Assembly: GCF_055900595.2 (NCBI RefSeq)
Contig: NZ_CM148325.1
Length of the DNA stretch: 64,000 nucleotides
Strand: one strand, 5' to 3'
The notes beneath the pieces are model-generated. The model made no database searches. It saw nothing but the letters and a program-made list of their open reading frames with translations, and was not told the origin of the DNA. Shown piece by piece: positions 33,346 through 61,621 of this stretch (within the stretch, counting starts at the first letter, position 1; every line of letters begins with the position of its first letter). Position numbers and translations under genes: made by a program.

Positions 33346-33993
33346 ATGAATGGCAACCTTGGAGTGTATCAAAAAATGGCAAAACAACGAGATTTTGAAC
33401 AAATCACGACACATCAGCATTGCCGTCTCTATCCATTAGACGGCTACATCACGATGAACGTGTGCAAAATGAGTTCAACGCAGGCTGGACGCATACGTGA
33501 TATGAGTCTGAGCGACTTACAACAACAGGAGTTTGTTAGCCCAGAGGAGTTTGCATACATCACGGGGCGCACCTACAAAGCAGCCAAAAACATCATGGAC
33601 CGAAACGAAAGCCTGCTTATTAAGGAATACGCCACGCCAGACGCAACACGACCTAAGCGATTTATCAGACTCCAGCACTACTGGGCCGCAATTATCAACA
33701 ACAAAGCATCGCTGACACCACGCGAGCATCTATTTATCAATGAGATTCGAAACAACAAAACGCTTTACCGCGAGATGATGAAAATCAATCTCAAGATTCG
33801 CGAAGGGCGAGAAGTCTCGAAAAAAAACCAAGATACTCCCATCAATCGCAATCAGCGGCATAACACCAAAAGGAGTTTTCCCATGTGCGACCTGAGCAAA
33901 GCAGAGCTAATTGCAATCATATTGTTTGCCATAGATTTTGGTTTTCTTTTGAGCGGCGCAATTCTCCTTCCTGCAATTAACAGGAAAAATTAA
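33346..33993 (+). CDS. Cox/Apl-like HTH excision and switch regulator; start uncertain, C-terminal hydrophobic tail
   Basis: segment EFAYITGRTYKAAKNIMDRNESLLIKEY resembles Cox/Apl HTH; divergent from C; probable true start near 33502. Confidence 0.45.
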   Translation: MNGNLGVYQKMAKQRDFEQITTHQHCRLYPLDGYITMNVCKMSSTQAGRIRDMSLSDLQQQEFVSPEEFAYITGRTYKAAKNIMDRNESLLIKEYATPDATRPKRFIRLQHYWAAIINNKASLTPREHLFINEIRNNKTLYREMMKINLKIREGREVSKKNQDTPINRNQRHNTKRSFPMCDLSKAELIAIILFAIDFGFLLSGAILLPAINRKN

Positions 33994-34970: not shown

Positions 34971-35050
34971 ATAACCGGAAATTACCAGAAAGCAAGAAAA
35001 CATCCGCAACGGCGGAGGGATTCCCTTACGCCTGAAATAAGGAGCAGCGA

Positions 35051-35266
35051 ATGAGTAAACCACTAACCAGCATTGAGCGAAAAATTGTTTTTATGAATGT
35101 GGCAGGCGTGCAGTTCGAAGTGGATAAGCAGGTCATCGTCTCCGAAACGAGATGCCCGGCAGCAGGTGAGCAATGCACCTACCTGACACTGGCAGACGGC
35201 ACGCAAATAACCGCCGTCACCGACACCATTCGCGAGCTTGTGATTATCAGAGGGGTTAAACGATGA
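35051..35266 (+). CDS. hypothetical early protein (71 aa)
   Basis: ORF with RBS aaggagc; stop overlaps next ORF. Confidence 0.4.
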   Translation: MSKPLTSIERKIVFMNVAGVQFEVDKQVIVSETRCPAAGEQCTYLTLADGTQITAVTDTIRELVIIRGVKR

Positions 35267-35475
35267 CCAGCAAATACACCACCAACGCACGCAAGCCAGG
35301 CAAGGAGGCACGTCATCACATTGCCGTTCTGCGCAATCTCATCATGTGCGAAATCGACGACTTTGTGGCGGGACTGGGCCAGCCGGGCGAGCCAGCAACA
35401 CCGGGCGAAATACACAAAGAACTACGCCGCCGCATAGAAAGCGCGGTGGATTACGTCATGAACCCGAACGACTGA
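35263..35475 (+). CDS. hypothetical early protein (70 aa)
   Basis: ATGA-coupled to upstream ORF. Confidence 0.4.
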   Translation: MTSKYTTNARKPGKEARHHIAVLRNLIMCEIDDFVAGLGQPGEPATPGEIHKELRRRIESAVDYVMNPND

Positions 35476-35515
35476 CCAGAACGCGAGCGCGCGCCGGATG
35501 ACGCACGCATAACGC

Positions 35516-36001
35516 TTAGCGGGAAGCGCCAACCGTAAGGCTGGCAATGATTTTTTCGGAGAGTGAGAGAGATTCGCGATGATTAAGACCAAGAGCAGCA
35601 CAAGCTTTATTGCGCGCCGGGTTGTCCATGCATTCAAGCACCGGAGAGTCCTGCTTCTCAATTTCCACCAGTCGCGCCAGCAACACCTCCGTGCTGAGAC
35701 CGTCGCTTTCAGTAATCAGGACGTTATAGCGATGAGCCTGTTCTTTTGCAGCCTGAGCGCGTCGCCCAAATTTCCAGGCGATATTGCAGCCACTAAGCAC
35801 AGCCACGATACCACCCAGCAACCAACTGAAATTGCTGTCTGCAAACACAGTAGCCCCAGACGTAAGGATGACAGCATTAATCACCGTATCCATACGGCGG
35901 TTAAACACCTCCGAAATATGTTCAAGCCAGTAACTGTTCCAGAGACGAAACATGACCTCGTGTCGCCGTTCGGCATGATTTTCAGTTGGTTGTCTGTTCA
36001 T
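35516..36001 (-). CDS. 2-TM membrane protein encoded antisense to the early operon (possible moron)
   Basis: 161 aa with a hydrophobic hairpin (VINAVILTSGATVF ... FSWLLGGIVAVLSGCNIAW) followed by a charged helical tail. Confidence 0.5.
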   Translation of the reverse strand: MNRQPTENHAERRHEVMFRLWNSYWLEHISEVFNRRMDTVINAVILTSGATVFADSNFSWLLGGIVAVLSGCNIAWKFGRRAQAAKEQAHRYNVLITESDGLSTEVLLARLVEIEKQDSPVLECMDNPARNKACAALGLNHRESLSLSEKIIASLTVGASR

Positions 36002-36244
36002 TGCGGTTTAACCCTCCTCATCATCTCGCCCCTGCCCTTTTTCAGGCGCGGGAGCCGGTTGCCGTGGCACATGAAATTTATCGCTATCAGACATTTATTT
36101 TTTCCCGTGTGTTGTTGAACAAACTGCCCGCACAGTTTTGACGGAACGGCGGGCGCTTCAAGCGTAACACACCCTTCTTTTCCGGTTGAAGGCGAAAAAA
36201 ACCGGACAGCTACCCGACACAAACCAGACCAGCGGAGAACTGCC

Positions 36245-36799
36245 ATGTACGCACTTAAACCTATGGGGATACCAGGCAAAGCCCCGGCGCATGTGAAAGC
36301 CTGGACACAGCAGGAAGATGATTTGCTGATCACCCTGTACCCGCAGCACACAGCACGAGATATCGCCGGACGTCTGGGGCGCAGCTACGAAGGAGTTCGC
36401 GGCCGCATTTCTCGTCTGCGTGAACAGGGCAGGATTGGCATCAAGCAGCAAAGACTAAGCGATGAGATGATCGCCACGCTCATCAGGAACCGCCACACCA
36501 GGTCCCTCAAGGAACTGGCACACATGGCGAAAGTTTCGACACGCACGGTAACCAACCGATTGAGGGCGCTGGGCTACAGCCTGATCAAATGCGGAGAACT
36601 GCATAAAAACGCCGTCTACAGCGACTGCATCGTTGAGATTATCAACCAGTTACGCGACGAGCAGGGCCTGACGTTCAGGGAAATCGCGCAGCGCCTTAGC
36701 CACGAACTACAGCCGAACCCCACCCCGGCACTTGCTCGCCATCTCTACTGGCGCCGCACAGCAGCCGACGCCGTACTCCGCGAACTGTTACCAGATTGA
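36245..36799 (+). CDS. hypothetical DNA-binding protein with three HTH-like segments
   Basis: 184-aa ORF; repeated ...(R/K)x(L/I)AxxLGxSxxxVxxRLxxL... motifs. Confidence 0.5.
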   Translation: MYALKPMGIPGKAPAHVKAWTQQEDDLLITLYPQHTARDIAGRLGRSYEGVRGRISRLREQGRIGIKQQRLSDEMIATLIRNRHTRSLKELAHMAKVSTRTVTNRLRALGYSLIKCGELHKNAVYSDCIVEIINQLRDEQGLTFREIAQRLSHELQPNPTPALARHLYWRRTAADAVLRELLPD

Positions 36800-37119
36800 G
36801 CAATCACCATGTACACACAAAAAAACCGCTTGCAACAACAAACCGGAACAGGGTACGCTTCCCCCGCACCTCATAAAACGGGTGTCGGGTTTCGCAGCCT
36901 GCTGACTAGCAAAGCGCACAACCGCGCCAGCGGTTTTTTTGTGCGTACTGTATTGCCACGTCTTTTTCGCACACGAATTATGGCGGGGCGTACGGGGCCG
37001 ACTTCGGTCGGGCCGGGTTCTTTGCTAGCCGGTACTGCGAACCTCGTACGTCTCGCCACCCACAGTTTCGCAGCTCTGGATGGTGAGTTTTTAAAACTTA
37101 CTAGCAAAGAGGCCACACC

Positions 37120-37338
37120 ATGGCAAACCGCAAACAGCGCCGCGCTACTGCGGAGCATCACCACGTCCGCGCCCAAATCGACAAACGCCTTTTCCGCGCA
37201 TCACGCGTTGCACGCATCATGCACATCAACATGCTGCATGAACGCAGAGGGGCACTACCGAACACCTATATCGCCTCCGTTTTCAGCTATCTGGCGGACG
37301 ATCTCGCCGAGCTGCAACACCTCATTAACCAGCACTGA
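37120..37338 (+). CDS. hypothetical small protein (72 aa)
   Basis: ATG preceded by aaagagg RBS. Confidence 0.35.
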   Translation: MANRKQRRATAEHHHVRAQIDKRLFRASRVARIMHINMLHERRGALPNTYIASVFSYLADDLAELQHLINQH

Positions 37339-37410
37339 TAAACATCCCGAAGCCATCCTGCGCCCGTTCGCGGGAGGCTTCCACACATCTGTAGTCGGGA
37401 GGATTGCGCC

Positions 37411-37779
37411 ATGATTCTGGCTGACGATTTTCTGGAGTACCTGAACAACACCGAGCGCGACCTGTACGCGCGCGTTCTCACCCGTTACGAGAAATACAAA
37501 CTTTCACTGCCAGAGCATCAACTCCGCGAAGGCGATATCGACATTGAAGGGCGCTACATCGTCAGGCGCCGCATAGCGGGCTACGGCATCTGGCGTGTCA
37601 CCGGACTTGAGCATTCATTGCTGACCATCTGCCAGAGTCCGTCCGGCGTGATAACGGAGATCGTCGCCGATAGTCTGCGACTCACCCATCACAGCGCCAC
37701 CCCGGAAGAAACGCTGGCAGAAACCCAGCGTCTGTGTCGCGTCATTGCCAACGCCGCCCTCCGCGCAGACAGGAGGTAA
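37411..37779 (+). CDS. hypothetical protein (122 aa) immediately upstream of gene A
   Basis: ORF with RBS ggagg; ends 4 nt before A. Confidence 0.45.
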   Translation: MILADDFLEYLNNTERDLYARVLTRYEKYKLSLPEHQLREGDIDIEGRYIVRRRIAGYGIWRVTGLEHSLLTICQSPSGVITEIVADSLRLTHHSATPEETLAETQRLCRVIANAALRADRR

Positions 37780-37782
37780 GCG

Positions 37783-40272
37783 ATGGAGTTCGTCAGAGAC
37801 TGGCAAAAACCGCGCCCCGCTATCGGGCGCGAAGGCTTACCCGTACCTGAAACCGCACTGGATACCATCCTGAAGTGTTACCGCGCAGACGAAGAGCGCG
37901 CACTGCACGCTGAAGAGCAGGGTCATCCGCTTGCGGGCACAACCATCGGTAACGCGATCGACAAGTGGGAAGGCGCACAGGAGCGCCAGGAAGAGGCCAT
38001 CACGCTCACACAGGAAGCGAGAAGACACCCGCCCACCCTTATTGAGGAAACCCTCAAAGAGCTGGACACCCTGCCCAAGTGGTTGAGGCTGCCGCTGATT
38101 AAGCACCTGAACTTTTTAAGGCGCAAACAGGAGGACGAACAACAGAAAGGCAAGCGCGGCAAGGACACCCGCAAATATGAGCGCTTCCTGAAAAACGGCA
38201 TCCCCGCACGTCTTCGCCGTATTCGTGAGATTAACGCTCGCTTTGCACCGTTAAGTTTTCAGGCCGCTGCCATGCGCGAGAGTCTGGAAGAACTGATCAC
38301 ACTGCCGAACCTGAGCCGTGAACGCATCCAGAAAATAGCCGTACTGCTTGCCAGCGCCGTTAAAATGCATCTTGCCGACGCAATGGACAAGGCCCGCGAA
38401 ATAACAGGGAACGACAAAGACGACAACCTGAACAACTGGCTGATTGCCTACCAGTATATTGGTCGCCGTGTCCTGAAGCTGGGGATCACCCCACCATACT
38501 GGAGCGCCCTTGAACTCCGCCCCGACCGCAGAAGCCCCCCGGACGTGACACTGGTTCCGGGCGCTGTTTTGCGCCTGAACGACGCCGAATGGTGGAATAA
38601 AAAACTTCGCCAGATGCACGACGTCTGGCGTGAGGAACTTTTACGTGCAGCGGGCCTTGTATCCCGCCAGACCTCCGTTTATGTGAGCCGTGAAGCGCTG
38701 GCAGACTTCCGCGAAAAACAGGCCCGTACCCGCGATTTTCTCAAAGCGCACGACGTGGAGAACGAAGACGGCGAACGCATCAGTCTGGAAGATATCTACT
38801 ACGCCAGTACATCCAACCCGCATAACCGCCGCAACGAGATGATGGCGTGCGTTAAGGGAATGGAGCTTATCGCACAGGAACGCGGCGACGTGGCCTTCTT
38901 CGTCACGGTCACAGCCCCGTCTCGTTTTCACAGCGTCACCGACGCAGGCACGCTGAACCCGAAATACAAAGGCGCAACCGTAAAGGACGCCAGCGACTAT
39001 CTGGTTTATAACTTCTTCGCCTCCGCCCGCAAACTCATCAAAAAAGAGAAGCGGGGCTGGTACGGCATTCGCACCGTGGAGCCTCACCACGACGGCACGC
39101 CCCACTGGCACATGCTGGTATTCACAAGCCCTGAGAACGAAGAGCGCATCACGGAAATCATGTGCAATGCCGCCATTCGCGAAGACCGGGCAGAGCTGGG
39201 CGACGACATCACCCCGCGCTTCAAGTGCGAGAAGATAGATCCCGAAAAAGGCACGCCAACCAGCTACATCGCCACCTACATAGGCAAAGGCATTGACGCC
39301 GCTGCATTCGGCGACACGGATCCAAAAACAGGTAAACCGCCCGTTGACCACGAAAGCGGAAAACCTATGGCGGACACCGTGGAAAACGCCGTCGCCTGGG
39401 CGCGCCTGCATCGCATTCGCCAGTTCCAGTTCTTTGGCCTCCCTTCCCGTCAGGTGTGGCGTGAGTTCCGCCGCCTTGCCGGACAAATGGCACGCAACCC
39501 GAAGGGGCCGCAGGCACTGACCAACCCCAAAGCCGACGCCCTCCTTGTTGCAGCCGATACGGGGTGTTTTGCCAGCTACATCATGCATCAGGGCGGTGTG
39601 CTCATTCCCCGTAGTGAATATCTGGCCCGCACAGCCTACGTCACCGCAGAAGAGCCGAACAATTACAGCGAATTCCCCGAGCGCATTTACGGTATCCGCA
39701 TGCCGGAACTGGGGGAGGACTTCACGTTATGCACCCACCCGGAAGAGTGGAAAATCGTCAGAAAGGAACCGGAACCAGACAACCGCACGGGCGAGGGTTT
39801 TGACCTTCAGGGCGGCCCCGCCGCCCCTTGGACTCGTGGCAATAACTGTCACCCTGACGAAAAAACAACCAACAACAGCACACAAACAGAACAGTCAGAG
39901 TGGGCAAAACTGCCCCCCTTACCCCCATCGTCGGACGGTTTTGTGAGCTGGTTTAAGTCGCTTAAGAGGCCGGACAGGAAAAAACTACAAAGATTGCTCA
40001 AAAAACGCACCGAAGAGAGTCGCCAGAACGCCAGCGGCGGCACCGACACACCCACCGACACCATTAACCTGGGCGTTGTGCTGCCGGAACTGCCGGAAAT
40101 CGTGCAAGTCCGCCGCGATCTGGAAGCGCTGGGCGCGGACTTCCCCGAAGCAATGGCCCATTCCGTCTTTATGGGTGCCCGCGTTCGTCTGGGTGACGGT
40201 CGCACCGTTCACCGCGACGAGCAGACCGGGCGCATCACCGTCACCAGTCTGCAACCGGAGGCGAAACCATGA
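37783..40272 (+). CDS. A: P2 gpA-type rolling-circle replication initiator
   Basis: 829 aa; position after the early genes and length fit the P2/186 A protein; HxH-type motif region (HWHMLVF). Confidence 0.85.
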   Translation: MEFVRDWQKPRPAIGREGLPVPETALDTILKCYRADEERALHAEEQGHPLAGTTIGNAIDKWEGAQERQEEAITLTQEARRHPPTLIEETLKELDTLPKWLRLPLIKHLNFLRRKQEDEQQKGKRGKDTRKYERFLKNGIPARLRRIREINARFAPLSFQAAAMRESLEELITLPNLSRERIQKIAVLLASAVKMHLADAMDKAREITGNDKDDNLNNWLIAYQYIGRRVLKLGITPPYWSALELRPDRRSPPDVTLVPGAVLRLNDAEWWNKKLRQMHDVWREELLRAAGLVSRQTSVYVSREALADFREKQARTRDFLKAHDVENEDGERISLEDIYYASTSNPHNRRNEMMACVKGMELIAQERGDVAFFVTVTAPSRFHSVTDAGTLNPKYKGATVKDASDYLVYNFFASARKLIKKEKRGWYGIRTVEPHHDGTPHWHMLVFTSPENEERITEIMCNAAIREDRAELGDDITPRFKCEKIDPEKGTPTSYIATYIGKGIDAAAFGDTDPKTGKPPVDHESGKPMADTVENAVAWARLHRIRQFQFFGLPSRQVWREFRRLAGQMARNPKGPQALTNPKADALLVAADTGCFASYIMHQGGVLIPRSEYLARTAYVTAEEPNNYSEFPERIYGIRMPELGEDFTLCTHPEEWKIVRKEPEPDNRTGEGFDLQGGPAAPWTRGNNCHPDEKTTNNSTQTEQSEWAKLPPLPPSSDGFVSWFKSLKRPDRKKLQRLLKKRTEESRQNASGGTDTPTDTINLGVVLPELPEIVQVRRDLEALGADFPEAMAHSVFMGARVRLGDGRTVHRDEQTGRITVTSLQPEAKP

Positions 40273-40679: not shown

Positions 40680-40822
40680 AAAGAATCGCCGGAACTGACT
40701 ACCAGGAGCTGCTTAAAGCGGTGGAAAACTACCGTTCAGCGCTGGTGTGGTGTGAGATTAAGCCCTGTGACCCGGGAGCAGTTAAGGATTGCAACCGGCG
40801 CGTGAGGACATTCAGCGCGTAA
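40676..40822 (+). CDS. hypothetical 48-aa Cys-containing peptide, coupled to upstream ORF
   Basis: hand translation MKRIAGTDYQELLKAVENYRSALVWCEIKPCDPGAVKDCNRRVRTFSA; ATGA overlap. Confidence 0.3.
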   Translation: MKRIAGTDYQELLKAVENYRSALVWCEIKPCDPGAVKDCNRRVRTFSA

Positions 40823-40937
40823 TTGGCTACCGCTATGTAGCAGCCATTATTGACCTTGTGAATGAACTGGAGGAAGCAAAAGAGCGCATCGCAGAACTGG
40901 AAACCCAGAATAACCCCAACCAGCAGGAGCAGAAGCC

Positions 40938-41519
40938 ATGAAAAAAAGAGACCTTAAAAAACACCTCCGTAGTCAGATTGAATATTTTGAAGATAAGGCT
41001 GCAAAAACAGGGCTTTCCGGTAAAGAGAACATGAACTTCAGGGCACACCTCCTGACGTGGAGAATACTTAATATCACGAGAGATGGACTTGAGCCGCTAG
41101 CCTACCTGATGGAAGATGGCGAGACCCTCATACAGGATCCCAATGTGGAAATGGAGAAGAAAGAGATGGACCTGCCGATAATCGGGCTGTTTGAGATCCC
41201 TGAACTAATAGGACGTTATGAACACGAAAACCGCCAGCTTGCCGCCTTTTTATCCGTGACAATCGAACGACTGGAAACCGTGAAACACGATATTCCGTTC
41301 GGTTTTGATGAGCGCACCGAGGGTGATTTGCTCAGCTTTCAGATTGCCCTGAACGTGCTCACCGCAGAGCCTTCTGCGTGGCTACGCCCGGAACGGCACC
41401 ACAACACGTTCGCATTTACCGTAATTCCCTACGATGCCGCACAGGAAGAGGATAACTTCGAGACCAGGCTTGTTCCCCTGTATCAGATTGCGGATTTCTA
41501 TACGTTGATTCGCTGGTAA
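40938..41519 (+). CDS. hypothetical 193-aa acidic protein (prophage cargo)
   Basis: ORF followed by a strong intrinsic terminator; no recognisable family. Confidence 0.55.
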   Translation: MKKRDLKKHLRSQIEYFEDKAAKTGLSGKENMNFRAHLLTWRILNITRDGLEPLAYLMEDGETLIQDPNVEMEKKEMDLPIIGLFEIPELIGRYEHENRQLAAFLSVTIERLETVKHDIPFGFDERTEGDLLSFQIALNVLTAEPSAWLRPERHHNTFAFTVIPYDAAQEEDNFETRLVPLYQIADFYTLIRW

Positions 41520-41534
41520 TCCCCCACAGTAAAA

Positions 41535-41557
41535 CAGCCCGACCGGGCTGTTTTTTT
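41535..41557 (+). terminator. rho-independent terminator
   Basis: cagcccgaccgggctg hairpin followed by T7. Confidence 0.6.
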
Positions 41558-41614
41558 ATCTGATATTTTTGATAACGTTGACCGGCTCATTAGCAAAAAA
41601 GCAAAGAGGAAAAC

Positions 41615-42001
41615 ATGAAAGCCCGTATCGGGATCATCCCGGAAAAAGCCCTGCGCCAGCACCTGATTGATATTGCCAGAGGGAAGCGAAAACCACAGCC
41701 CGACGAGCCAAAGGTATGGTTTTCATCCATCAATGCGGCAGGCCAGACGCTGAGCAATGAAAATATCGCCCTTCTGCGTCTTATGAATGAGGAGAAGCCG
41801 CAGACCATGACCGCACTTGCGGAGTTATCCGGCAGAAAACTGAGCAACCTGTCTGTAACCCTGAAAATGCTGAGCAGCTACGGTTTTGTCAGTCTGGAAA
41901 AGAAAGGGAATACTGTACACCCGAAAGCACTTTTTACCGATTTTGAAATCATCGTTGATCCGTCCGTGGGTTCAGTACATCGCGCCACCGCCCGGCCCTG
42001 A
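41615..42001 (+). CDS. standalone winged-helix DNA-binding protein (128 aa)
   Basis: C-terminal half TMTALAELSGRKLSNLSVTLKMLSSYGFVSLEKKG has wHTH character; RBS agaggaaaacATG; flanked by terminators on both sides. Confidence 0.5.
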   Translation: MKARIGIIPEKALRQHLIDIARGKRKPQPDEPKVWFSSINAAGQTLSNENIALLRLMNEEKPQTMTALAELSGRKLSNLSVTLKMLSSYGFVSLEKKGNTVHPKALFTDFEIIVDPSVGSVHRATARP

Positions 42002-42012
42002 AGTGCGCAATA

Positions 42013-42040
42013 AACAGCCCCGTTCGGGGCTGTTATTTAT
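42013..42040. terminator. bidirectional terminator between convergent genes
   Basis: cagccccgttcggggctg hairpin with T-rich flank. Confidence 0.55.
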
Positions 42041-42411
42041 TCCAGAATCAGCTGTTCAGGTGTGCAGCCGTACAGTCTGGCAAGGCGCTCAATATTTGCC
42101 CTGCGCGGGCGTTCTGTTCTTTCGAATTCGGACACGGTAGCCTGCCTGATACCCAGCGCATCCGCCACCTGCTTTTGCGTCATTCCGCGATAGATTCGCC
42201 ACGCCGCCTGCATGGTGCAGCCACGTTCCGAGAGGATGTTGACCACCTCGTTGGGATACAGCGTATCAGGCGATGCACTCGGTTCGTTCTGGACGTCCTC
42301 GTAGAGTTCGTCAAGGTCGCTGTCTCCTGCCAGTTTTTCAAACAACGCCACTGGCAGAATGACGGATACCCTGTTACCCGCACCGTCAGTAATAAACTGA
42401 ATCTGACTCAT
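42037..42411 (-). CDS. XRE-family HTH antitoxin (HigA-like)
   Basis: C-terminal MTQKQVADALGIRQATVSEFERTERPRRANIERLARLYGCTPEQL is a Cro/C1-type HTH; adjacent to RelE/ParE toxin gene. Confidence 0.7.
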   Translation of the reverse strand: MSQIQFITDGAGNRVSVILPVALFEKLAGDSDLDELYEDVQNEPSASPDTLYPNEVVNILSERGCTMQAAWRIYRGMTQKQVADALGIRQATVSEFERTERPRRANIERLARLYGCTPEQLILE

Positions 42412-52915: not shown

Positions 52916-53493
52916 ACGCGGAGCTTATGCGCCTTATCAGCAACATTATCAGAACCGGCGTGATTTTCGACGTGAACCCGCAGACCTGGGAGGTCCGGGT
53001 GCGCAGTGGCGGACTGGAGACAGGCTGGCTTCGCTGGAGCACCGCGCGGGCGGGCGCGTTCAGTGTCTGGGTGCCGCCAGCCACCGGTGAACAGGTGGCG
53101 TTCGTCTGTATCGGTGGTAATCCCGAAACCGCGATAATCATCGGCAGCCTCTGGAGCGATGATATCCCGGCACCGGGCAGCACACTGAAGGAAATCATCA
53201 TGACAGCACCGGACGGTGCGGTATTCCGCTACGATGCAGACGCCGGTGCACTGGAGGTTAAGGGGATTAAAACAGCCAGCATTCAGGCCGACACGCGCAT
53301 CACCCTGGACACGCCGGAGGTGGTGTGTACCCGCAAACTTATCACCGCCACCCTGGAGGTGCAGAACGGCGGCGAGATGCGCGGCAGCATATCCCACAGC
53401 GGCGGCAGCCTGACATCCAACGGTATCACCGTTCATACGCACACCCACGGTGGCGTCAGGACGGGCCCGGGCACCACGGGAGGCCCGCAATGA
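52912..53493 (+). CDS. V: baseplate spike protein (P2 gpV-like)
   Basis: 193 aa; conserved HTHTHGG-like C-terminal apex motif. Confidence 0.85.
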   Translation: MNAELMRLISNIIRTGVIFDVNPQTWEVRVRSGGLETGWLRWSTARAGAFSVWVPPATGEQVAFVCIGGNPETAIIIGSLWSDDIPAPGSTLKEIIMTAPDGAVFRYDADAGALEVKGIKTASIQADTRITLDTPEVVCTRKLITATLEVQNGGEMRGSISHSGGSLTSNGITVHTHTHGGVRTGPGTTGGPQ

Positions 53494-53840
53494 CCGCTGT
53501 TTACAGGGGGATGAACCCGCAGGGAACCGGCACGCTGAGCGACAGCGAACACCTGAAAAACAGCGTGCGGGATATCCTGACCACACCGCCAGGCAGCCGG
53601 GTGATGCGCCGCGAATACGGCAGCCTGTTACCGGACCTCATCGACGAGCCCATGAACGACACCACGCGTTTACAGTGCATGAGCGCCACGGTGACTGCGC
53701 TGGCGCGCCATGAACCCCGTATAGCACTGCAGAACGTCGATGTGAACTGGCGGGCTGGCGGACGCGCCGTGGTGACGTTATCCGGCATCATCACCGAAAC
53801 CATGCAGAACATCACATTCAGTATCACCATAAGGGAGTAA
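53490..53840 (+). CDS. W: baseplate wedge protein (P2 gpW-like)
   Basis: start MTAVYRGMNPQGTG; P2 order. Confidence 0.85.
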   Translation: MTAVYRGMNPQGTGTLSDSEHLKNSVRDILTTPPGSRVMRREYGSLLPDLIDEPMNDTTRLQCMSATVTALARHEPRIALQNVDVNWRAGGRAVVTLSGIITETMQNITFSITIRE

Positions 53841-53843
53841 ATC

Positions 53844-54740
53844 ATGCCTTCCGTTGACCTGTCACAGTTACCGGAACCGGCCATCATCGCGCAGCCGGAT
53901 TTTGAGTCCATCCTGGCAGACATTAAAACCATGATGGTGAGCTCCTTCCCGGAAGAATACCGCGCCGCCGTCACCCGTGCCCTTACTCTGGAATCCGAGC
54001 CATTGAACATCATTTCCCAGGCCATGGCCTTTCGTGAAATGCTGCTTCGCCAGCGCATCAATGAAGCCGCCCGCGCCTGCATGCTCAGCCACAGCCGGGG
54101 CAGTGACCTGGACAATCTGGCTGCCAACAACAACACCCGCCGCCTGGTCATTCATCCGGCCACTGATACCACGGAAGCAGTGATGGAAAGCGACACATCG
54201 CTGCGTCTGCGTGCCCAGTCAGCCTGGGACGGCCTGAGTGTGGCCGGACCGTCCGGCGCGTATGAGTATTTTGCCCGGAGCGCAAGCGGTCTTGTCCGTG
54301 ATGCGCGCGCCATCAGCCCGTCACCGGCCACAGTCACCGTCTCCATCCTGTCAGCAGACGGTGACGGCACCGCCGGTGAGGCGTTACTGAACACGGTGCG
54401 CACCGCCCTGAATGCCGAGAACGTGCGCCCGGTTGCCGACCGCCTGACTGTGCAGAGTGCTACCATCGTGAACTGGGAAATGGAAGCGAAGCTGTATTTT
54501 TATCCAGGGCCGGAGTCTGAACCCATGCTTGCGGCCGCTGACGCCGCTTTCCGTGCATGGCTGGCAGACCAGGGCCGTATCGGTCAGGATGTGGCCCTGT
54601 CAGCCATCACTGCAGCGCTGCATGTTCACGGTGTCCAGCGCGTTGAGGTCATAAAACCCACGCAGAACATCACCATCAGTGACACTCAGGCAGCCAGATG
54701 TACCACATTCAGCATCAGCGAAGGAGGACGCAATGAGTGA
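53844..54740 (+). CDS. J: baseplate protein J
   Basis: 298 aa at the J position. Confidence 0.85.
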   Translation: MPSVDLSQLPEPAIIAQPDFESILADIKTMMVSSFPEEYRAAVTRALTLESEPLNIISQAMAFREMLLRQRINEAARACMLSHSRGSDLDNLAANNNTRRLVIHPATDTTEAVMESDTSLRLRAQSAWDGLSVAGPSGAYEYFARSASGLVRDARAISPSPATVTVSILSADGDGTAGEALLNTVRTALNAENVRPVADRLTVQSATIVNWEMEAKLYFYPGPESEPMLAAADAAFRAWLADQGRIGQDVALSAITAALHVHGVQRVEVIKPTQNITISDTQAARCTTFSISEGGRNE

Positions 54741-55461
54741 CAGGAAAAAAACAGACAGCGCACAGCACAGTACATCACTGCTTCCACCGTCCGCAGGGCC
54801 ATTCATGCGCGCCACAGAGGCGACAGGAGTACGCATCAGTACCATACCGGTGGACGCCGACACCCTGTGGTCGCCGGACCGCTGCCCTGCTCACCTCCTG
54901 CCCTACCTTGCATGGGCATGTTCCGTTGACCGCTGGGACCGCAACTGGCCGGAAGAGACCAGACGACAGGTGATTGGCCAGTCCTGGAAGGTACACCGCC
55001 AGAAAGGAACGGTCAGCGCACTGAGGGAAACAGCCGCAGCATTCGGTTATGAGATGACCATCAGTGAATGGTGGGAGCATGGAGGGCAGCCGGGCACCTT
55101 TACTGTGACCATCGGGGCAGACACTCAGGGCATCGGCCCTGAAACATGGCTGGAGATGGAGGATCTGCTCAATGATGCACGTCCGGTTTCACGTCATATG
55201 ACGGGGCTTTATGCCGCCCTGCGTTCTGGCGTGACGGTTTACTGCGCTGCGGGAGCAGGCTGTGATGAGCTTGTAACCATTCACCAGAAAGCTCGCGCCT
55301 CCCTGGCGGGCCAGGTGACCATCATCGCAGCAGGAGACACACACACAACCGACAGTGTGACCGTACTGCCGGGGGTTCCGTCAGGTATGTACGGGGAGAT
55401 CTGTATCCGTACCGGCGCAGGTATATTCGTGAGTGAGATTGTGGAGGTTATCACCTTATGA
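54733..55461 (+). CDS. I: baseplate/tail protein I
   Basis: start MSDRKKTD with RBS aaggagg, overlapping J stop. Confidence 0.8.
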   Translation: MSDRKKTDSAQHSTSLLPPSAGPFMRATEATGVRISTIPVDADTLWSPDRCPAHLLPYLAWACSVDRWDRNWPEETRRQVIGQSWKVHRQKGTVSALRETAAAFGYEMTISEWWEHGGQPGTFTVTIGADTQGIGPETWLEMEDLLNDARPVSRHMTGLYAALRSGVTVYCAAGAGCDELVTIHQKARASLAGQVTIIAAGDTHTTDSVTVLPGVPSGMYGEICIRTGAGIFVSEIVEVITL

Positions 55462-56573
55462 ACACCGATTTTTATTCCGTTCTGACGGATGCCGGGCTGA
55501 AAAAACTGGCGGCAGCCGCAGCATCAGGGAATCAGATGAAAATCACCCATATGGCTGTAGGCGACGGAAACGGAAAAGCCGTAACACCCGGCAGGGCCGA
55601 CACCAGGCTTGTCAGGGAAAAATACCGTGCGCCACTGAACAGTCTGGAAGAAGACACAGAGAGACCGGGGCATGTTATCGCAGAAATGGTGATACCTGAA
55701 AAACAGGGAGGGTGGTGGATCAGAGAATTCGGATTATTCGACGAAGACGGCGGAATGATTGTTACAGGCAAATTTCCTGACACATGGAAGCCTGCACCTG
55801 GTCAGGGTGGAGCACGACTGATATCAGTGAAAGTGGTTGTGGCAGTATCACATACAGAAAACATTGTGCTGAAAGTGGATCCTTCTGTTGTCATGGCAAC
55901 CCGGGAATGGGTGAACACAAAAGCAGAGCAGTTAAAGAAAGAGCTCAGACAACCTGATGCAACCACCAAAACAAAAGGCATTGTTCAGCTTAGCAGTGAC
56001 ATCAACAGCACCTCTGAAACGCAGGCTGCCACCCCCGGAGCGGTAAAAGCCGTGAATGATCGTGTGGACGGAAAACAGGACGCGGATCCCACGCTCACAT
56101 CTCTGTCCGGGAAAAATGCACAGCAACTGAGGCAGCTTCTGGGGCTGGGCACGCTTGCCACCCTGAACAGGGGCACCGGTTCAGGGAATGTGCCGGACAT
56201 GAGTCACTTTGCGAGTAAAAAAGCAGACTACGGTTACCAGTGTTTTCCTGGCGGCATAATGATCCAGTGGCTGCGGATCCCCTCAGACCACACAGAAAGA
56301 GCTGTCAGTCAGGAAGCCCGGGTGGCACTAAGCGGCGTGCGACTGTTTTCAGTGGAGGGTAACTGGAACGGTAATAACATGATTAAGACCCTGGCAAACT
56401 ACCAGTGGCCGAGAGTTTTCGGGGCAATTTATGCGACCGTTGCAACCAGGAATCACGGATCTGCATGGCGAGTATATCCGGTGTCCGCGAACAAGGATGT
56501 GCGTGTCGTATCCATTGCCTGGGCGGGAGAAGGTACAGATGACACTTATGTGGTTGGGGTGGGAAGAGTATGA
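55458..56573 (+). CDS. H: tail fibre protein (gpH-like conserved N-terminus, short divergent C-terminal receptor-binding region)
   Basis: N-terminus MNTDFYSVLTDAGLKKLAAAAASGN..ITHMAVGDGNG resembles P2 H; 371 aa versus ~670 in P2. Confidence 0.8.
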   Translation: MNTDFYSVLTDAGLKKLAAAAASGNQMKITHMAVGDGNGKAVTPGRADTRLVREKYRAPLNSLEEDTERPGHVIAEMVIPEKQGGWWIREFGLFDEDGGMIVTGKFPDTWKPAPGQGGARLISVKVVVAVSHTENIVLKVDPSVVMATREWVNTKAEQLKKELRQPDATTKTKGIVQLSSDINSTSETQAATPGAVKAVNDRVDGKQDADPTLTSLSGKNAQQLRQLLGLGTLATLNRGTGSGNVPDMSHFASKKADYGYQCFPGGIMIQWLRIPSDHTERAVSQEARVALSGVRLFSVEGNWNGNNMIKTLANYQWPRVFGAIYATVATRNHGSAWRVYPVSANKDVRVVSIAWAGEGTDDTYVVGVGRV

Positions 56574-57016
56574 AAATGATGTGGTCGCCGTCTGTGGGCG
56601 GTTTTTTTGGTGAAGACAGCAGCCATATACCGGAAGATGCGGTGGAGGTTGATGAATCGATGTGGAGCAGGATGATGGAGGGACAACTTGAGGGAAAAAT
56701 TATCGTTAACGGCCCTGACGACCTGCCTGTTCTGGAAGAGCGTCCGGGACCGGGGCCAGAAGAATACCGGCATCAGGCTCGCCTTGAGCTTGCTGACCTT
56801 CGCCGACAGGGGCTGGAACACATAGAGTCGATGCGCTGGCGTGACAAAGCGGTCATGAACAGGCTGGGAGAAGAGGAGAAGCAGGAGTATAACGCCTGGC
56901 TTGACTGGCTCGACGCGCTTGACAGTACGGACATATCAGGGGCACCGGATGTGGTGTGGCCGGTGATGCCCGTCACGGTGGTTCCTGAACATCCTCAGAA
57001 AAAATTGCCGGAGTGA
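56570..57016 (+). CDS. tail fibre assembly chaperone (Tfa/gpG-like)
   Basis: C-terminal ...YNAWLDWLDALD...VVWPVMP resembles the conserved Tfa C-terminus. Confidence 0.65.
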   Translation: MKMMWSPSVGGFFGEDSSHIPEDAVEVDESMWSRMMEGQLEGKIIVNGPDDLPVLEERPGPGPEEYRHQARLELADLRRQGLEHIESMRWRDKAVMNRLGEEEKQEYNAWLDWLDALDSTDISGAPDVVWPVMPVTVVPEHPQKKLPE

Positions 57017-57022
57017 ACAGCC

Positions 57023-57050
57023 TCCGGCCTGAGACTGCACTCAGGCCGGA
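57023..57050. terminator. bidirectional terminator hairpin between convergent tfa and U
   Basis: 11-bp stem tccggcctgag / ctcaggccgga. Confidence 0.55.
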
Positions 57051-57057
57051 AATTCTG

Positions 57058-57504
57058 TTATCTGCCAGCATTGCGGATGATACCCGAAAGCATATCAGAC
57101 ACCGACGGCATCATTCGCTCCCGCAAATCCTCATCACAGCGTTCCATACTGACAGTGAACTCAATTTTTTTGGCCTTACCGTGGCGGTCAAGTTCGCTTC
57201 GCGTTGTGCGGACAGCCGTTATCACATACATGCCGTATATCTGCCCCACACCGTCAATCAGCGGCCATGGGCGGCCAGTGTAAGCCTGCGTCGTTAAAAG
57301 GCTGAGGGAAACCTCACCGCCGGTAATTTCGGGATAAAGCACACCGGACAACGTGATCTGGTCGTCACCCGCCCCGATATACTGCCAGCTGGCCGAACGA
57401 TTGATGCGTTCATTTTTAACGTGGCGCCAGGTTTTATTATGTTGCAGTTGTTGATGAGGCAGCGTGCGCAACTCAAAAACAAACATGCCGTAAATCATCA
57501 TCAT
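57058..57504 (-). CDS. U: tail protein U
   Basis: 148 aa; MMMIYGMFVFELRTLPHQ...ITLSGVLYPEITGG...GRPWPLIDGVGQIYGMYVI resembles P2 U. Confidence 0.85.
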   Translation of the reverse strand: MMMIYGMFVFELRTLPHQQLQHNKTWRHVKNERINRSASWQYIGAGDDQITLSGVLYPEITGGEVSLSLLTTQAYTGRPWPLIDGVGQIYGMYVITAVRTTRSELDRHGKAKKIEFTVSMERCDEDLRERMMPSVSDMLSGIIRNAGR

Positions 57505-57515
57505 GCGAGGTACTC

Positions 57516-60500
57516 CTAATCTCTGTCACGGAAACTACCGACTGTCTGGCGGATACGGCGTTCCATTTCCGCACGGACGGCATCACCCACCATTTTTGCC
57601 AGTTCGCGCGGGTTTTGCGTGTGAACATCATGCAGGTGAATATGCAGTTCGCCAGTTAATCCCCATGGTGCCGGATCACTCTGACGCGGTCGGGGCGATG
57701 CGGGGGATATGGGCTGGCGCACAGCCTCAACCACCGGACGGGATGTTGCCGTTACGACGGGTGTCATTACCGGCGCAATATTGCCGGACACTACCGGTTT
57801 AATTACCGGGGAGAGCGTCGGTATAACATCGCCAGCCATAACCGGTTTGATCGCTGGCGAAATAACCGGAGCAACAGACTCAGCCATGACGGAACTGACA
57901 GGCTGAGGCGCTCTCACTATGCCAGCATCGATAACCAGCATGAGCTCGCGTACTGCCTCAAGGACAGGACGGGATATTGCCGCCATCACTGGTGTCATTA
58001 GCGGGGAGAACGTCGGCATGACATCGTGAGTCATAACCGGTTTGATCACCGGCGAAACCACCGGCGTAATATTACCGGACAGTACCGGACGGACGACCGG
58101 AGGAATAACCGGCACATTATTCACGGACACCACCGGCTTCACGACCGGCGACACGTTCGCCGTGGTGGATATCAGCGGCGAAACACTGACAGGCGGTGGC
58201 GCTGGCAGCGGTGGCAACGAAGGCACACTGACCGACGGCACCTGCGGCAGTCTGACAGGTGGCTCACTGACACTACCCGGTAACAGGGAAGCTGCGCGGT
58301 TAAAGCGTTCCTCCTTCCACTCACCACGAACGGCCAGCGCTTCCGGCAGGTTTTTAAAGATAATATCGCCGGGACCAGTGCGTTTTTTCGCCTGTTTCGC
58401 CTCATCCAGCAGGCCACCGGTGTTATCGACGATTTTATTCAGGCGACGCATGGTGCCGGTATTCTCCCCCGTCAGCGGAGCAGTTGCTGCAGGTGCAGGT
58501 ACTGGCGGCTTTTTGTCTTTGTCATTTTGCGGCGGATTAATGACATTAACATCCGCCAGGAGCATGGCGGCTTTCTCGTTCAGCAGCTCCTTCTGCTTCA
58601 GCTCTTCCGCCTTTTTCCGGGCGCGCTCAACCGCCGACGGAATCAGCCCGAGTTTTTCCAGCACCCGGGTTAATGAGTCAATCAGCAGCGTAACCGGACC
58701 GGTCACCAGATTGCTGATAAACTCCCCGACCTTCTGCCCGAACGTCCGCCCGGCTTCCGTGCACTTGTCCAGCTCATCCTTTGTTGTGCTTACCGGCGCG
58801 AACAAATCCACGAACCACTGCCACACACGCCCGATTGTCTGCCCGACATACTCAAACAATGGTCCCAGTGGTGCCACAGCCTCGCGCAGTGGCGTAAGCC
58901 CCTGCCACAGGCCGGACAAGAACCCGCCCACGACAGCCTTCAGCTGGTCCCAGTGCCGCCAGATAAGCACTGCCGCACCGACCAGTGTCGCCACCACAAG
59001 GCCCACCGGACTTAACAGAAAACCCAGCGCCCCGCCAAGTGCGCCCACCGCACCACTCACCATCCCCCACAGTGCGGGCAGACCTGACAGTCTGAGCGCC
59101 AGTATTCCGATACCGCGCCCCAGTGAAATCAGTGCGCCGCCAGGTGAAGTGAACGCAGCCAGCAGACCACCACGCAGCGCGCCAAGTCCCGCCTGCACAC
59201 CACGAAGCCGCCCCGCAACTACGCCCAGCAGTGCAGCAAACCGTCCGGCACCGGAGGTGATACCGACAAACAGCACGCGCCAGCCACCGATACCGCCCAG
59301 CGGACCACCGAGTACGCCGCGCAGCTGCGTCAGTAACGGCAGCGCACGACCGAGGCCGGATGTGCCGGTCAGCAGGGCAAACCCAAGACGCAGTTTTGCC
59401 AGCGGCCCCATCAACACACCAGTGGCAAGTGACAGCGCCCCCATGGCCGCAACCGCAGCCAGCAGTGCACCACCGGCAATCAGCAGTTGTTTTGTCAGTT
59501 CAGGGTGCGCCTGGGCCAGCGCGGTGACTTTCGCAATAACCCGGGTGAACGACTGCGTGACAGAACGCAGCGGCCCGTCAACGAGGTCAGCGACACGGAT
59601 ACGCAGCCCTTCCCATGCGCTGTTCAGTGATTTCAGGTCGCCGTCCAGGTTGTCCGCCATGATTCTGGCGTTTTCTTCCAGTTCGCCGTTCGCTGCCTGA
59701 ATCTCACGCGTCAGGCGCGGCAGGTTTTTTTCGCCTGCCTGTTCAACCAGGCTCATCAGGGAGACATACGCCTCCTGCCCGGCAATATCTGAAAAGAACG
59801 AGACTTTTGCCGCGTTACCGTATTTACGGGTGGCCTGATACAGCTCATACAGGATATCTTCCATCGGGCGCATGTTCCCGTAAGCATCCTGCGTTTCCAC
59901 GCCCAGCTGTTTCAGCGCCTTTGCTGCCGCTTTAGGCGGGTTCACAAGGCGGGACAGACTGGAGCGCAGCGCCGTACCAGCATCACTGCCACGTATCCCC
60001 ATCGACCCAAGCAACCCGGTCATGGCTGCGGTCTGTTCAAGAGACAGACCGAGTGAGGCGGCGACCGGTCCCGTATATTTCATCGTCTCACCAAGCCCGC
60101 GCAGGTCGGTATTGGTGCGGGTGAACGTTGCGGCCAGCGTGTCACCCACGCGGTTCATCTGGTCGGCAGACAACCCGAACTGCGTAAGGATATTTGAGCT
60201 GATATCGGCCGTCTGACCGAGGTCCATGCCGCTGGCCGTTGCCAGATTCAGCACGCCGGGAAGAGCCGCCTGTATCGCCTGCGGCGTGAACCCCGCCATG
60301 GCAAGGAACGCCTGACCGCTGGCAGCATCACCTGCGGTAAACTGCGTTTCGGAGCCGAGTTTAAGCGCCTGTTCGCGCAGCGCCTTAAACTGCGGACTGT
60401 TTTTGTCAATACGGGTCAGCGCCTGGACGCGCGACATCTCCTTACCAAAACTGACCGCCGGTTGCAGGAAACGCCCGGCCGCATAGCCACCTGCCGCTGC

Positions 60501-61094
60501 CGTGCCGACTGCCGTAAATCCACCCGCTTTCAGTTTTCCCGCCATCTCCTGAGCGCGGAAATATTGCTGGCGTGCCTGCGTGACGCGTGCCAGAGTCTGC
60601 CGTTCACGTTCCAGCTGTTCGTTGTATTGCTGTGTTCGCCGTATGGCCTGTTGAATGGTGTTGTCACTGCCGGAAAGCGCAATACCGTGACGCCGCAGCT
60701 CACCACCCAGTTCGCGCATTCGCTGAACTTCACGCGCACGGACCTCATTGAGACGCTCAAGTTTGAGGCTCAAATCGTTCATCAGCTTTTTCTGTTTGTC
60801 AGACAGCACGGTTCCGGCGCGCTGAATTTGCTGAAGTGCGCTTAACTGGCGTTGTGCCCGGGCAATGCCGTTTCCGGCCTTGTTTGCAGCCTCGCGGGCG
60901 CGATCAAATGAACGGGCGTGGCGTTCCAGGTTTTTGATCGCACCCTGCGTTCTCTGTATGGAGTCGCCAAGCTGGCCCATCATGCGACGGGCGTTTTCGG
61001 TGGGACGGGTCAGCCTGTCAACAGCGCTGAAGGCGACCCGTATATCAAGCGTTTTCATGCTCTGCGTTCCCGCTGCGAAGGGCCGCCCGCTCAC
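57516..61094 (-). CDS. T: tail tape measure protein (gpT-like, 1,192 aa, with Pro/Val-rich tandem repeats near the C-terminus)
   Basis: long helical protein with a transmembrane-like glycine-rich central region; located between E and U. Confidence 0.85.
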   Translation of the reverse strand: MSGRPFAAGTQSMKTLDIRVAFSAVDRLTRPTENARRMMGQLGDSIQRTQGAIKNLERHARSFDRAREAANKAGNGIARAQRQLSALQQIQRAGTVLSDKQKKLMNDLSLKLERLNEVRAREVQRMRELGGELRRHGIALSGSDNTIQQAIRRTQQYNEQLERERQTLARVTQARQQYFRAQEMAGKLKAGGFTAVGTAAAGGYAAGRFLQPAVSFGKEMSRVQALTRIDKNSPQFKALREQALKLGSETQFTAGDAASGQAFLAMAGFTPQAIQAALPGVLNLATASGMDLGQTADISSNILTQFGLSADQMNRVGDTLAATFTRTNTDLRGLGETMKYTGPVAASLGLSLEQTAAMTGLLGSMGIRGSDAGTALRSSLSRLVNPPKAAAKALKQLGVETQDAYGNMRPMEDILYELYQATRKYGNAAKVSFFSDIAGQEAYVSLMSLVEQAGEKNLPRLTREIQAANGELEENARIMADNLDGDLKSLNSAWEGLRIRVADLVDGPLRSVTQSFTRVIAKVTALAQAHPELTKQLLIAGGALLAAVAAMGALSLATGVLMGPLAKLRLGFALLTGTSGLGRALPLLTQLRGVLGGPLGGIGGWRVLFVGITSGAGRFAALLGVVAGRLRGVQAGLGALRGGLLAAFTSPGGALISLGRGIGILALRLSGLPALWGMVSGAVGALGGALGFLLSPVGLVVATLVGAAVLIWRHWDQLKAVVGGFLSGLWQGLTPLREAVAPLGPLFEYVGQTIGRVWQWFVDLFAPVSTTKDELDKCTEAGRTFGQKVGEFISNLVTGPVTLLIDSLTRVLEKLGLIPSAVERARKKAEELKQKELLNEKAAMLLADVNVINPPQNDKDKKPPVPAPAATAPLTGENTGTMRRLNKIVDNTGGLLDEAKQAKKRTGPGDIIFKNLPEALAVRGEWKEERFNRAASLLPGSVSEPPVRLPQVPSVSVPSLPPLPAPPPVSVSPLISTTANVSPVVKPVVSVNNVPVIPPVVRPVLSGNITPVVSPVIKPVMTHDVMPTFSPLMTPVMAAISRPVLEAVRELMLVIDAGIVRAPQPVSSVMAESVAPVISPAIKPVMAGDVIPTLSPVIKPVVSGNIAPVMTPVVTATSRPVVEAVRQPISPASPRPRQSDPAPWGLTGELHIHLHDVHTQNPRELAKMVGDAVRAEMERRIRQTVGSFRDRD

Positions 61095-61571
61095 GCCAGG
61101 CGACCACCTCGCCGGGATCCATCAGGAAGATTTCAGCGGGAGACCAGTTGAAAATAACGGCGATATCCGCCACAAAGTCTTCAATATGCTCAAAGGGCAC
61201 GACGGTTATCAGCCTGCCGTCGCCGCCACGCTCTTCCCGCCAGAGTCCTGACCGGCCAAAAAATTAACCGCCACCCCGCACAGCTGAATAAAATCAGCGG
61301 ACCCCATGCGCTTAAGCAGAACCTCGTCCAGTCGCGGCGAAGTGACGCGCGGGAGTAACTCAAACATCGCGTCCGTTTTCATGTTCAGCACGTCAAGCAG
61401 TGACAGCCCGCGCAGTGAACCGGCCTGCTGTACAGCAGGCGTGATTTCCACATACGTGATTTTTTTGTTACCGAGCACAAGGGGCGTTTTCAGCGTCACG
61501 CCGCGCTCACTGGTCACGTCCGCCGCATCAGCACCGTCAGTAACAGGGGCAACAACCGGATTTTCTTTCAT
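61045..61571 (-). other. predicted E+E' product made by -1 programmed frameshift at TTTTTTG (61257-61263), extending to a TGA at 61045 and overlapping the T start
   Basis: hand translation of the -1 frame after the slippery heptamer gives ~70 more codons. Confidence 0.5.
61209..61571 (-). CDS. E: tail assembly chaperone E
   Basis: 120-aa ORF between FII and T containing a T6G slippery site near its 3' end. Confidence 0.8.
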   Translation of the reverse strand: MKENPVVAPVTDGADAADVTSERGVTLKTPLVLGNKKITYVEITPAVQQAGSLRGLSLLDVLNMKTDAMFELLPRVTSPRLDEVLLKRMGSADFIQLCGVAVNFLAGQDSGGKSVAATAG

Positions 61572-61621
61572 GAATAAAACCTCAAATCAGGGGGCGACGC
61601 CACGCGCCGCCGTGGAAAACA

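Follow-up and report, generated by a model that had tools for sequence, protein, structure and literature searches.

Why does the early operon of a P2-like prophage carry one gene that points the wrong way, and what could this gene do for the phage or its host? In the window, by which we mean the whole stretch of 64,000 nucleotides analysed here (NCBI RefSeq assembly GCF_055900595.2, contig NZ_CM148325.1), 35516-36001 (-) is the sole minus-strand annotated gene between the first early gene (33346) and gene A (37783-40272), which encodes the replication endonuclease. An earlier note, made from the sequence alone, had described it as a gene for a membrane protein with two transmembrane (TM) segments, and had read it as a membrane effector carried by the prophage as a moron. 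We analysed the gene, its surroundings and its homologues, and found that it forms a small cassette together with an unannotated gene directly upstream. The features that frame the gene are:

35263-35475, plus strand: upstream gene of the early operon, convergent with the cassette, encoding a 70-aa protein of phrog_4144 (ORF, RefSeq, PHROG)
35516-36001, minus strand: gene for a 161-aa membrane protein with a predicted SLATT fold (ORF, RefSeq CDS, substitution bias, phrog_6315, AlphaFold2 (AF2), Foldseek)
36245-36799, plus strand: next early gene, divergent from the cassette, encoding a 184-aa DNA-binding protein of phrog_323 (RefSeq, PHROG)

The minus-strand gene encodes a protein under purifying selection

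The window is here 100% identical to the P2-like prophage of E. coli CM2, which adjoins glsA. An ORF of 161 codons with an ATG start coincides exactly with 35516-36001 (-), and its RefSeq product in the CM2 prophage is WP_032353759.1, a hypothetical protein. Its stop codon is separated by 40 nt from that of the convergent 70-aa gene. When homologues of the SLATT-fold protein were collected, 24 were found with identities of 54-99%; those with 54-79% identity come from Escherichia, Salmonella, Enterobacter, Citrobacter, Pantoea and one Yersinia phage. An exhaustive HMMER search yielded 102 cluster representatives, nearly all of them 150-165 aa long, and no further members came from a second, word-indexed search that used the family profile.

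In a codon alignment of five diverged SLATT-fold homologues, the differences at codon positions 1, 2 and 3 numbered 498, 320 and 907, indicating that purifying selection acts on the minus-strand protein. The presence of a minus-strand gene for 161 aa among plus-strand early genes, as described in the earlier note, is thus confirmed by the ORF, the RefSeq annotation, the third-position bias and the homologues. The reading frame, on whose conservation that note had made its proposal depend, is kept in related prophages. The ORF at 35516-36001 (-) is a real protein-coding gene.

At the beginning of the operon, the first early gene (33346-33993, plus strand), which occupies the position of cox, had no match in Pfam or PHROG, so that the label cox in the earlier note finds no support there. 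RefSeq assigns this gene a shorter product of 172 aa in CM2, and the coordinates of the window and of CM2 are off by one base.

The 161-aa protein is predicted to adopt a SLATT fold

To characterize the protein, we modelled it with AF2 using 80 family members as input (pLDDT 92.7, pTM 0.85). The predicted helices comprise residues 8-52, 59-76 and 78-101, and the hydropathy maximum falls on residues 50-79. According to this model, the protein consists of an N-terminal cytosolic helix, a TM hairpin at approximately residues 38-78 and, on the C-terminal side, a cytosolic domain of four helices, with 80 residues in the folded cytosolic domain. Basic residues are found in the sequence on either side of the hairpin. 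The hydrophobic hairpin followed by a helical domain, already noticed in the letters of the DNA, is therefore seen again in both the AF2 model and the hydropathy profile. The arrangement at the core of SLATT proteins, a two-TM hairpin between N- and C-terminal helices, is present in the model.

A Foldseek search against AFDB50 returned 155 matches at E <= 1e-3. The best 50 of these 155 are about 150 aa long and have TM-scores of 0.83-0.94; approximately 22 of the best 50 are annotated as SLATT and three as DUF4231, and one 'Fels-2 prophage protein' is included. In the viral structure library (BFVD), the top matches were SLATT proteins of giant viruses, and these were weak (E 4e-3). No solved relative of the 161-aa protein was found in the PDB, either by sequence-profile search or by Foldseek.

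At the level of sequence, the protein matches phrog_6315 (unknown function) with an E-value of 5.6e-51. The curated SLATT profiles tried were those of Pfam (SLATT_1-6 and DUF4231) and NCBIfam (NF0336xx). The best NCBIfam match was SLATT_4, with E 0.099 and 12.5 bits versus a cut-off of 55 bits, and distant family members gave sub-threshold NCBIfam matches to SLATT_4 and SLATT_1 (E 0.02-0.08). Pfam had no match for the protein or for the 80 family members, and PADLOC had none for the protein. Structure and profile searches, which had been suggested as a check of the effector reading, gave a divided answer: the fold is SLATT-like, whereas the curated profiles stay below threshold. On the strength of the model, we conclude that the protein has a SLATT fold and belongs to a divergent, stand-alone clade that lies outside the curated SLATT families by sequence. 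The proposed function as a membrane effector is consistent with the fold suggested by the structure search.

A small protein of this topology might instead serve the phage in a non-lethal manner, either as a block of DNA injection like Sie and Imm proteins, or in the timing of lysis, as holins and antiholins do. Small two-TM proteins with the N-in/C-in orientation predicted here are common among Sie/Imm proteins and class II holins, and the SLATT gene is phage-borne in every context. We nevertheless consider such a function improbable. A cytosolic domain of 80 residues and a SLATT fold are unlike a holin, and the lysis genes of the prophage, for lysozyme and LysC, form a block of their own in the late region, at a distance of about 15 kb. 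Moreover, a gene that opposes lytic transcription should be off during lysis, and no lysis or exclusion family in PHROG matched significantly (Rz-like, E 0.045). We therefore return to the reading of the 161-aa protein as a SLATT-fold effector, and turn to the DNA upstream of its gene.

A conserved micropeptide gene precedes the SLATT gene

The minus-strand gene had been credited with flanking intergenic regions of its own. Such regions exist, but the 243 nt on its 5' side are not empty, as they hold a conserved and unannotated gene of 28 codons (36094-36008). Upstream of it, the conservation continues into a 5' block:

36008-36094, minus strand: unannotated 28-codon gene, MSDSDKFHVPRQPAPAPEKGQGRDDEEG (conservation, codon-position differences, distant analogues, fusion model)
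36095-36220, minus strand: conserved 5' block of the cassette (alignment of upstream regions, two cassette subgroups)

The gene measures 87 nt with its stop codon and encodes a proline-rich micropeptide with an acidic tail. Only 6 nt lie between its stop codon and the SLATT ATG, and the ribosome-binding site of the SLATT gene, GAGGAGG, is located inside its 3' end. It is kept in 11 P2-like loci. The differences at the three codon positions amount to 92/72/253, and 192 synonymous codon pairs were counted versus 112 non-synonymous ones, indicating that the ORF encodes a peptide under selection. Distant homologues of the SLATT gene, found in lambdoid, Mu-like and other phage contigs, are preceded by a Pro-rich ORF of 26-50 aa that ends 4-10 nt upstream of the SLATT start, as in ...SDTDKFNVPHRPAPVPVRPPQR, ...PKPIRPTPPPPSTPSDGGKK, ...QRPAPKPEPKPKEENKG and ...HKPINERPVPPPKPQRKS.

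A Pro-rich peptide was found upstream of every homologue examined, with the exception of one lineage (L015-L017, IMG/VR contigs of the E. coli P0017 type). In these contigs a frameshift disrupts the micropeptide ORF about 90 nt upstream of the SLATT start, and the SLATT gene is intact. Another ORF of 31 codons overlaps the SLATT start in this lineage, and the TM region of its SLATT protein is the most divergent in the clade. The RefSeq record has no annotation of the micropeptide gene, and PHROGs contains no family for its product. With a length of 87 nt and no RefSeq entry for this gene, the module is invisible in current annotation.

When the micropeptide was joined to the SLATT protein by a linker and the fusion was modelled with AlphaFold, peptide residues 11-20 reached a pLDDT of 84, compared with about 52 for the linker. 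We regard this as a hint, and no proof, that the micropeptide docks on the SLATT protein.

The pair could also be read as an addiction module of the toxin-antitoxin type, in which the SLATT protein would be a membrane toxin and the micropeptide its labile antitoxin, so that the module would stabilise the prophage or kill the cell when translation is disturbed. A small first gene coupled to a larger membrane protein does resemble antitoxin-toxin operons, the core of the peptide is predicted to dock on the SLATT protein, and the family is found on mobile elements only. However, the L015-L017 lineage keeps its SLATT gene beside a frameshifted peptide gene, a state in which a free toxin should not survive. 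In addition, the 28-aa Pro-rich acidic peptide has no fold, no family and no DNA-binding domain for autoregulation; no toxin-antitoxin family was matched, and the SLATT protein matches no toxin family. An addiction module is therefore unlikely in our view. We prefer a SLATT-fold effector whose activity is tuned by the micropeptide, a reading in which the cassette would be expressed in the lysogen.

The 5' block contains the T-run CCTTCAACCGGAAAAGAAGGG and, at 36169-36161, about 66 nt upstream of the micropeptide ATG, the TGnTAnnnT motif TGTTACGCT. In both cassette subgroups TGnTAnnnT precedes the peptide ATG by about 60-66 nt, with a hairpin or a T-run before the motif. In the window, a terminator-like hairpin followed by T7 is located at 36218-36201; the terminator-like sites over 35000-36600 fell within the range obtained with shuffled sequences. 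The sequence TGnTAnnnT is a possible extended -10 promoter. Since a scan for consensus sigma-70 promoters over 35000-36600 found none, this candidate is taken from the motif as spotted by eye in the alignment of the upstream regions.

The cassette is phage-borne and changes its position

The cassette was phage- or prophage-borne in all of the at least 12 contexts that we examined, and it is rare, being present in 33 of 5426 complete E. coli genomes. In P2-like prophages it is always opposed to the early operon, at varying position: in E. coli, Pantoea and Yersinia it lies within the early operon upstream of the A module, and in Enterobacter between cox and the C repressor, where it points to C and int. 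Lambdoid prophages carry it antisense in the pL region beside cI, or directly past Q, and Mu-like contexts also contain homologues. In most sampled contexts the cassette is opposed to the surrounding lytic genes; one locus (L025), in which it is co-oriented with its neighbours, is an exception. No gene for a generator of nucleotide or DNA signals (SMODS cyclase, SLOG, TIR or reverse transcriptase) was found adjacent to the cassette in the window or in the homologue contexts.

In the P2-like prophage of E. coli AVS0542, the cassette only (query 545-1207, corresponding to window 35544-36206) matches, at 80%, and the flanks are unrelated. The antisense position, the unrelated flanks and the varying sites fit a moron, and the proposal made in the earlier note is in this respect supported.

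In P2-like phages, the early-strand frame opposite the cassette is kept free of stop codons

On the opposite strand, the same DNA contains a long open frame in the direction of the early operon:

35579-36118, plus strand: early-strand open frame of 179 codons (ORF list, codon counts in P2-like homologues, CDS of a Yersinia phage)

This frame runs antisense, in codon alignment, to SLATT codons 141-1, to the spacer and to the entire micropeptide gene, and the matching frame is open in every P2-like homologue, over 175-455 codons. A stop codon can arise in the early-strand frame only where the sense strand reads TTA, CTA or TCA. Among the 234 Leu/Ser codons that ten P2-like homologues have within SLATT codons 1-141, these three are absent, so the early-strand frame stays open, whereas after codon 141 they account for 13 of 53 Leu/Ser codons (9 of 31 events). 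The 234 codons correspond to 112 distinct column-codon events, and all nine other Leu/Ser codons are used fairly evenly. The chance of observing zero events was calculated as 7e-7 when the most GC-rich background was assumed and as 2e-16 for that of Yersinia, and a Fisher test comparing the 5' and 3' parts of the SLATT gene gave 8e-11. In the Yersinia phage, such codons number 0 of 155 in the SLATT gene, versus 4.5% per codon in the neighbour genes.

For the window alone, the depletion of antisense stops is not significant, given a background of 1.6% per codon and several comparably long genes that also lack such codons. Ordinary codon bias would thus be a sufficient explanation for the window taken by itself; for the clade it was rejected (0 of 112 events). 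For the P2-like clade, the codon counts make a statistically solid case for selection against antisense stops over the cassette. In AT-rich lambdoid homologues, 10-19 codons of the type TTA, CTA or TCA occur and the opposite frame is closed. The openness of the frame in the P2-like clade is the most unusual feature of the locus.

One explanation would be dual coding, with 35579-36118 (+) as a genuine early gene and, in the extreme form, the minus-strand ORF as a mere shadow. The frame is open beyond chance in all P2-like homologues, and its ATG, the complement of SLATT His141, is found in nine of ten homologues and has a purine-rich stretch upstream. In several loci it is spaced from the flanking early genes as in an operon, and -14 to +29 nt separate it from the next early gene (the gaps in the window are 103 and 126 nt); the annotation of Yersinia phage vB_YenM_42.18 calls a CDS on the opposite strand over the same DNA. 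However, the third positions of the minus frame, which are the first positions of the plus frame, vary most (907 vs 498), indicating that the amino-acid sequence of the plus frame is not conserved. As 78% of the His codons of the gene are CAT, finding CAT conserved at His141 is not significant, and PHROGs contains no family for the product of the early-strand ORF. Furthermore, the minus-strand protein folds at pLDDT 92.7 in the AF2 model, and AT-rich phage homologues have an opposite frame filled with stops. We give dual coding a small chance. Its extreme form, with the plus strand as the only real gene, is excluded by the codon-position pattern together with the homologues in which the opposite frame is closed. 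An early-strand frame that is translated, and whose sequence is irrelevant, remains part of the best explanation.

A proposed role of the cassette in lysogeny and lytic growth

We propose a two-gene moron cassette, in which a lysogen-expressed SLATT-fold effector is tuned by a micropeptide and the stop-free frame shields the early RNA from Rho; we put the chances of this proposal as a whole at about even. From the features described above we infer expression in the lysogen, pore activity, binding of the peptide, a role in defence and the Rho rationale, which would fit together as follows. The micropeptide would be translationally coupled to the 161-aa inner-membrane protein, which is predicted to have its N-terminus inside, to cross the membrane with two TM helices and to carry a helical domain in the cytosol. 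While the early promoter is repressed in the lysogen, the cassette would be transcribed from its own 5' control region. The SLATT-fold protein could then lie dormant in the membrane, as an effector of the pore or ion-leak type, and the micropeptide might hold or tune it via the cytosolic domain, as an inhibitor or as a sensor. Perturbation by an infecting phage would release the effector and depolarise the cell, resulting in abortive infection or exclusion. During the phage's own lytic growth, convergent early transcription would silence the cassette.

In the P2-like clade, the early transcript would run through the cassette in antisense direction for about 600 nt, and the early-strand RNA over the cassette is C-rich (GC skew -0.11 to -0.17). 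Most probably, ribosomes on the stop-free frame would cover this RNA and thereby prevent Rho polarity on the downstream gene A. Rho polarity is a known trait of P2 operons, and P4 Psu relieves it (references in PMC7552001). The lambdoid homologues may do without an open frame because antitermination makes the shield unneeded, their transcripts being presumably N/Q-antiterminated; base composition is an equally good reason.

Several observations count against our proposal: the L015-L017 lineage, which has no intact micropeptide gene and yet an intact SLATT gene; the co-oriented cassette of L025; the rarity of the cassette; the failure to match PADLOC, or Pfam and NCBIfam at threshold; the absence of a sensor or nucleotide-synthesising gene nearby, in contrast to characterised SLATT systems; the negative promoter scan; the non-significant stop depletion in the window alone; and the pseudogenes of the prophage. 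Regarding the latter, the tape-measure gene is annotated as truncated and a baseplate assembly gene has an internal stop (L018 1966-4161 and 9688-10584; late region, window approximately 53400-62000). The CM2-type prophage is probably defective, with the accessory cassette intact. A further comparison concerns the open frame: E. coli AVS0542 carries a 63-aa backward gene in a P2-like early operon (L024 2418-2609, minus strand) whose opposite frame is not open, which is why the Rho explanation is offered here as a hypothesis. This backward gene sits between a hypothetical gene and a DUF4761 gene.

In a sharper form, the cassette would be a minimal two-component immune module, in which the micropeptide gates the SLATT pore or senses for it, combined in P2-like phages with a 'sequence-irrelevant' frame that acts against Rho or against a duplex with the cassette mRNA. 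We offer this version tentatively and consider it less likely than not. If it is true, a reading frame would be selected for being open, and not for its product. The stop-free antisense frame offers a clean, falsifiable case of selection for frame openness, with a bearing on how phages tolerate backward insertions in essential operons and on the interpretation of 'shadow ORFs' that are annotated as genes. SLATT effectors are widespread in bacterial immunity, and a stand-alone one with a micropeptide as its only conserved partner would make the simplest system for gating studies.

Other elements in the early region

In the same early operon, 0.9 kb downstream of the cassette, Rfam found two RNAs above the gathering score on the plus strand, the Hfq-binding RNA isrK (36866-36940, 63 bits) and the C4 antisense RNA (36976-37063, 83 bits). 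A weak match to the c4-a1b1 target was also obtained within 36853-37063 (plus strand). Both isrK and C4 lie in an unannotated gap of 320 nt between the gene for the 184-aa DNA-binding protein and an ORF of 72 aa (37120-37338), whose homologue in L007 carries the Pfam domain 'Derepression'. Judged by these matches, the region looks like a control module for an antirepressor of the P1/Gifsy type, placed in a P2-like early operon.

A plus-strand ORF of 201 codons (36809-37414) extends over isrK, C4 and the 72-aa gene, using a different frame, and its stop codon shares bases with the ATG of the gene that follows (37411, ATGA). In E. coli 2013C-3033 (L007, rc 5959-7326), this 201-codon frame is continuous with the frame antisense to the SLATT gene, giving 455 stop-free codons. 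The ORF at 36809-37414 (+) may be a second early-strand frame that is kept open over non-coding or antisense sequence.

To the right of gene A (approximately 40800-42400; L001 11817-13309), a DUF6516 gene is paired with a transcriptional regulator, and a RelE-family toxin is accompanied by an HTH protein. We take the position of these accessory pairs to be the tin/old variable position of P2.

Comparison with known systems

Lambda RexB, which works with RexA, and SieB of P22 and lambda are lysogen-expressed membrane proteins that mediate exclusion or abortive infection, and RexB is a membrane channel component gated by its partner. Tin, Old and Fun are morons of P2. These genes and the cassette have in common that they are prophage-borne accessory genes thought to be active in the lysogen, as we propose for the cassette. 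However, none of them has sequence or profile similarity to the SLATT protein, and the partner here is a micropeptide. With respect to the stop-free frame, a comparison can be made with the c4-icd-ant-type control of P1 and P7, which works through translation-dependent escape from Rho, and with P4 Psu. A C4 antisense RNA and isrK are present in the operon that contains the cassette, as described above. The stop-free frame would likewise keep Rho off, in this case by means of ribosomes. In contrast to these systems, the cassette frame has no regulator, its amino acids are unconstrained and its openness alone is conserved; the link to Rho is one that we infer.

SLATT effectors and prophage morons are known already. 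In the literature on SLATT with prophages and on DUF4231, we found no description of the family of the 161-aa protein. Apparently undescribed, as far as this literature goes, are the family itself, a micropeptide as the partner of a stand-alone SLATT protein, and a stop-free frame over a backward moron.

SLATT proteins have been predicted to act as pore-forming effectors in conflict systems, which occur on prophages and satellites (10.64898/2026.04.29.721553; PMC9122126). The 161-aa protein resembles them in its predicted two-TM hairpin between helices, in its length (SLATT proteins have about 150-170 aa) and in the strong superposition of its model, but it scores below every curated SLATT HMM threshold. 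Unlike the SLATT conflict systems of the CBASS-like, SLOG and DRT10/UG17 types, the cassette has no cyclase, SLOG, TIR or reverse transcriptase gene adjacent to it; the Pro-rich peptide is its only conserved partner, and the gene lies antisense in phage lytic operons. How SLATT effectors are activated is an open question according to the DRT10 preprint (10.64898/2026.04.29.721553). P2-like phages are known reservoirs of defence genes, for which two hotspots have been described (PMC9122126). The cassette, in contrast, is found within the early operon or in the switch region.
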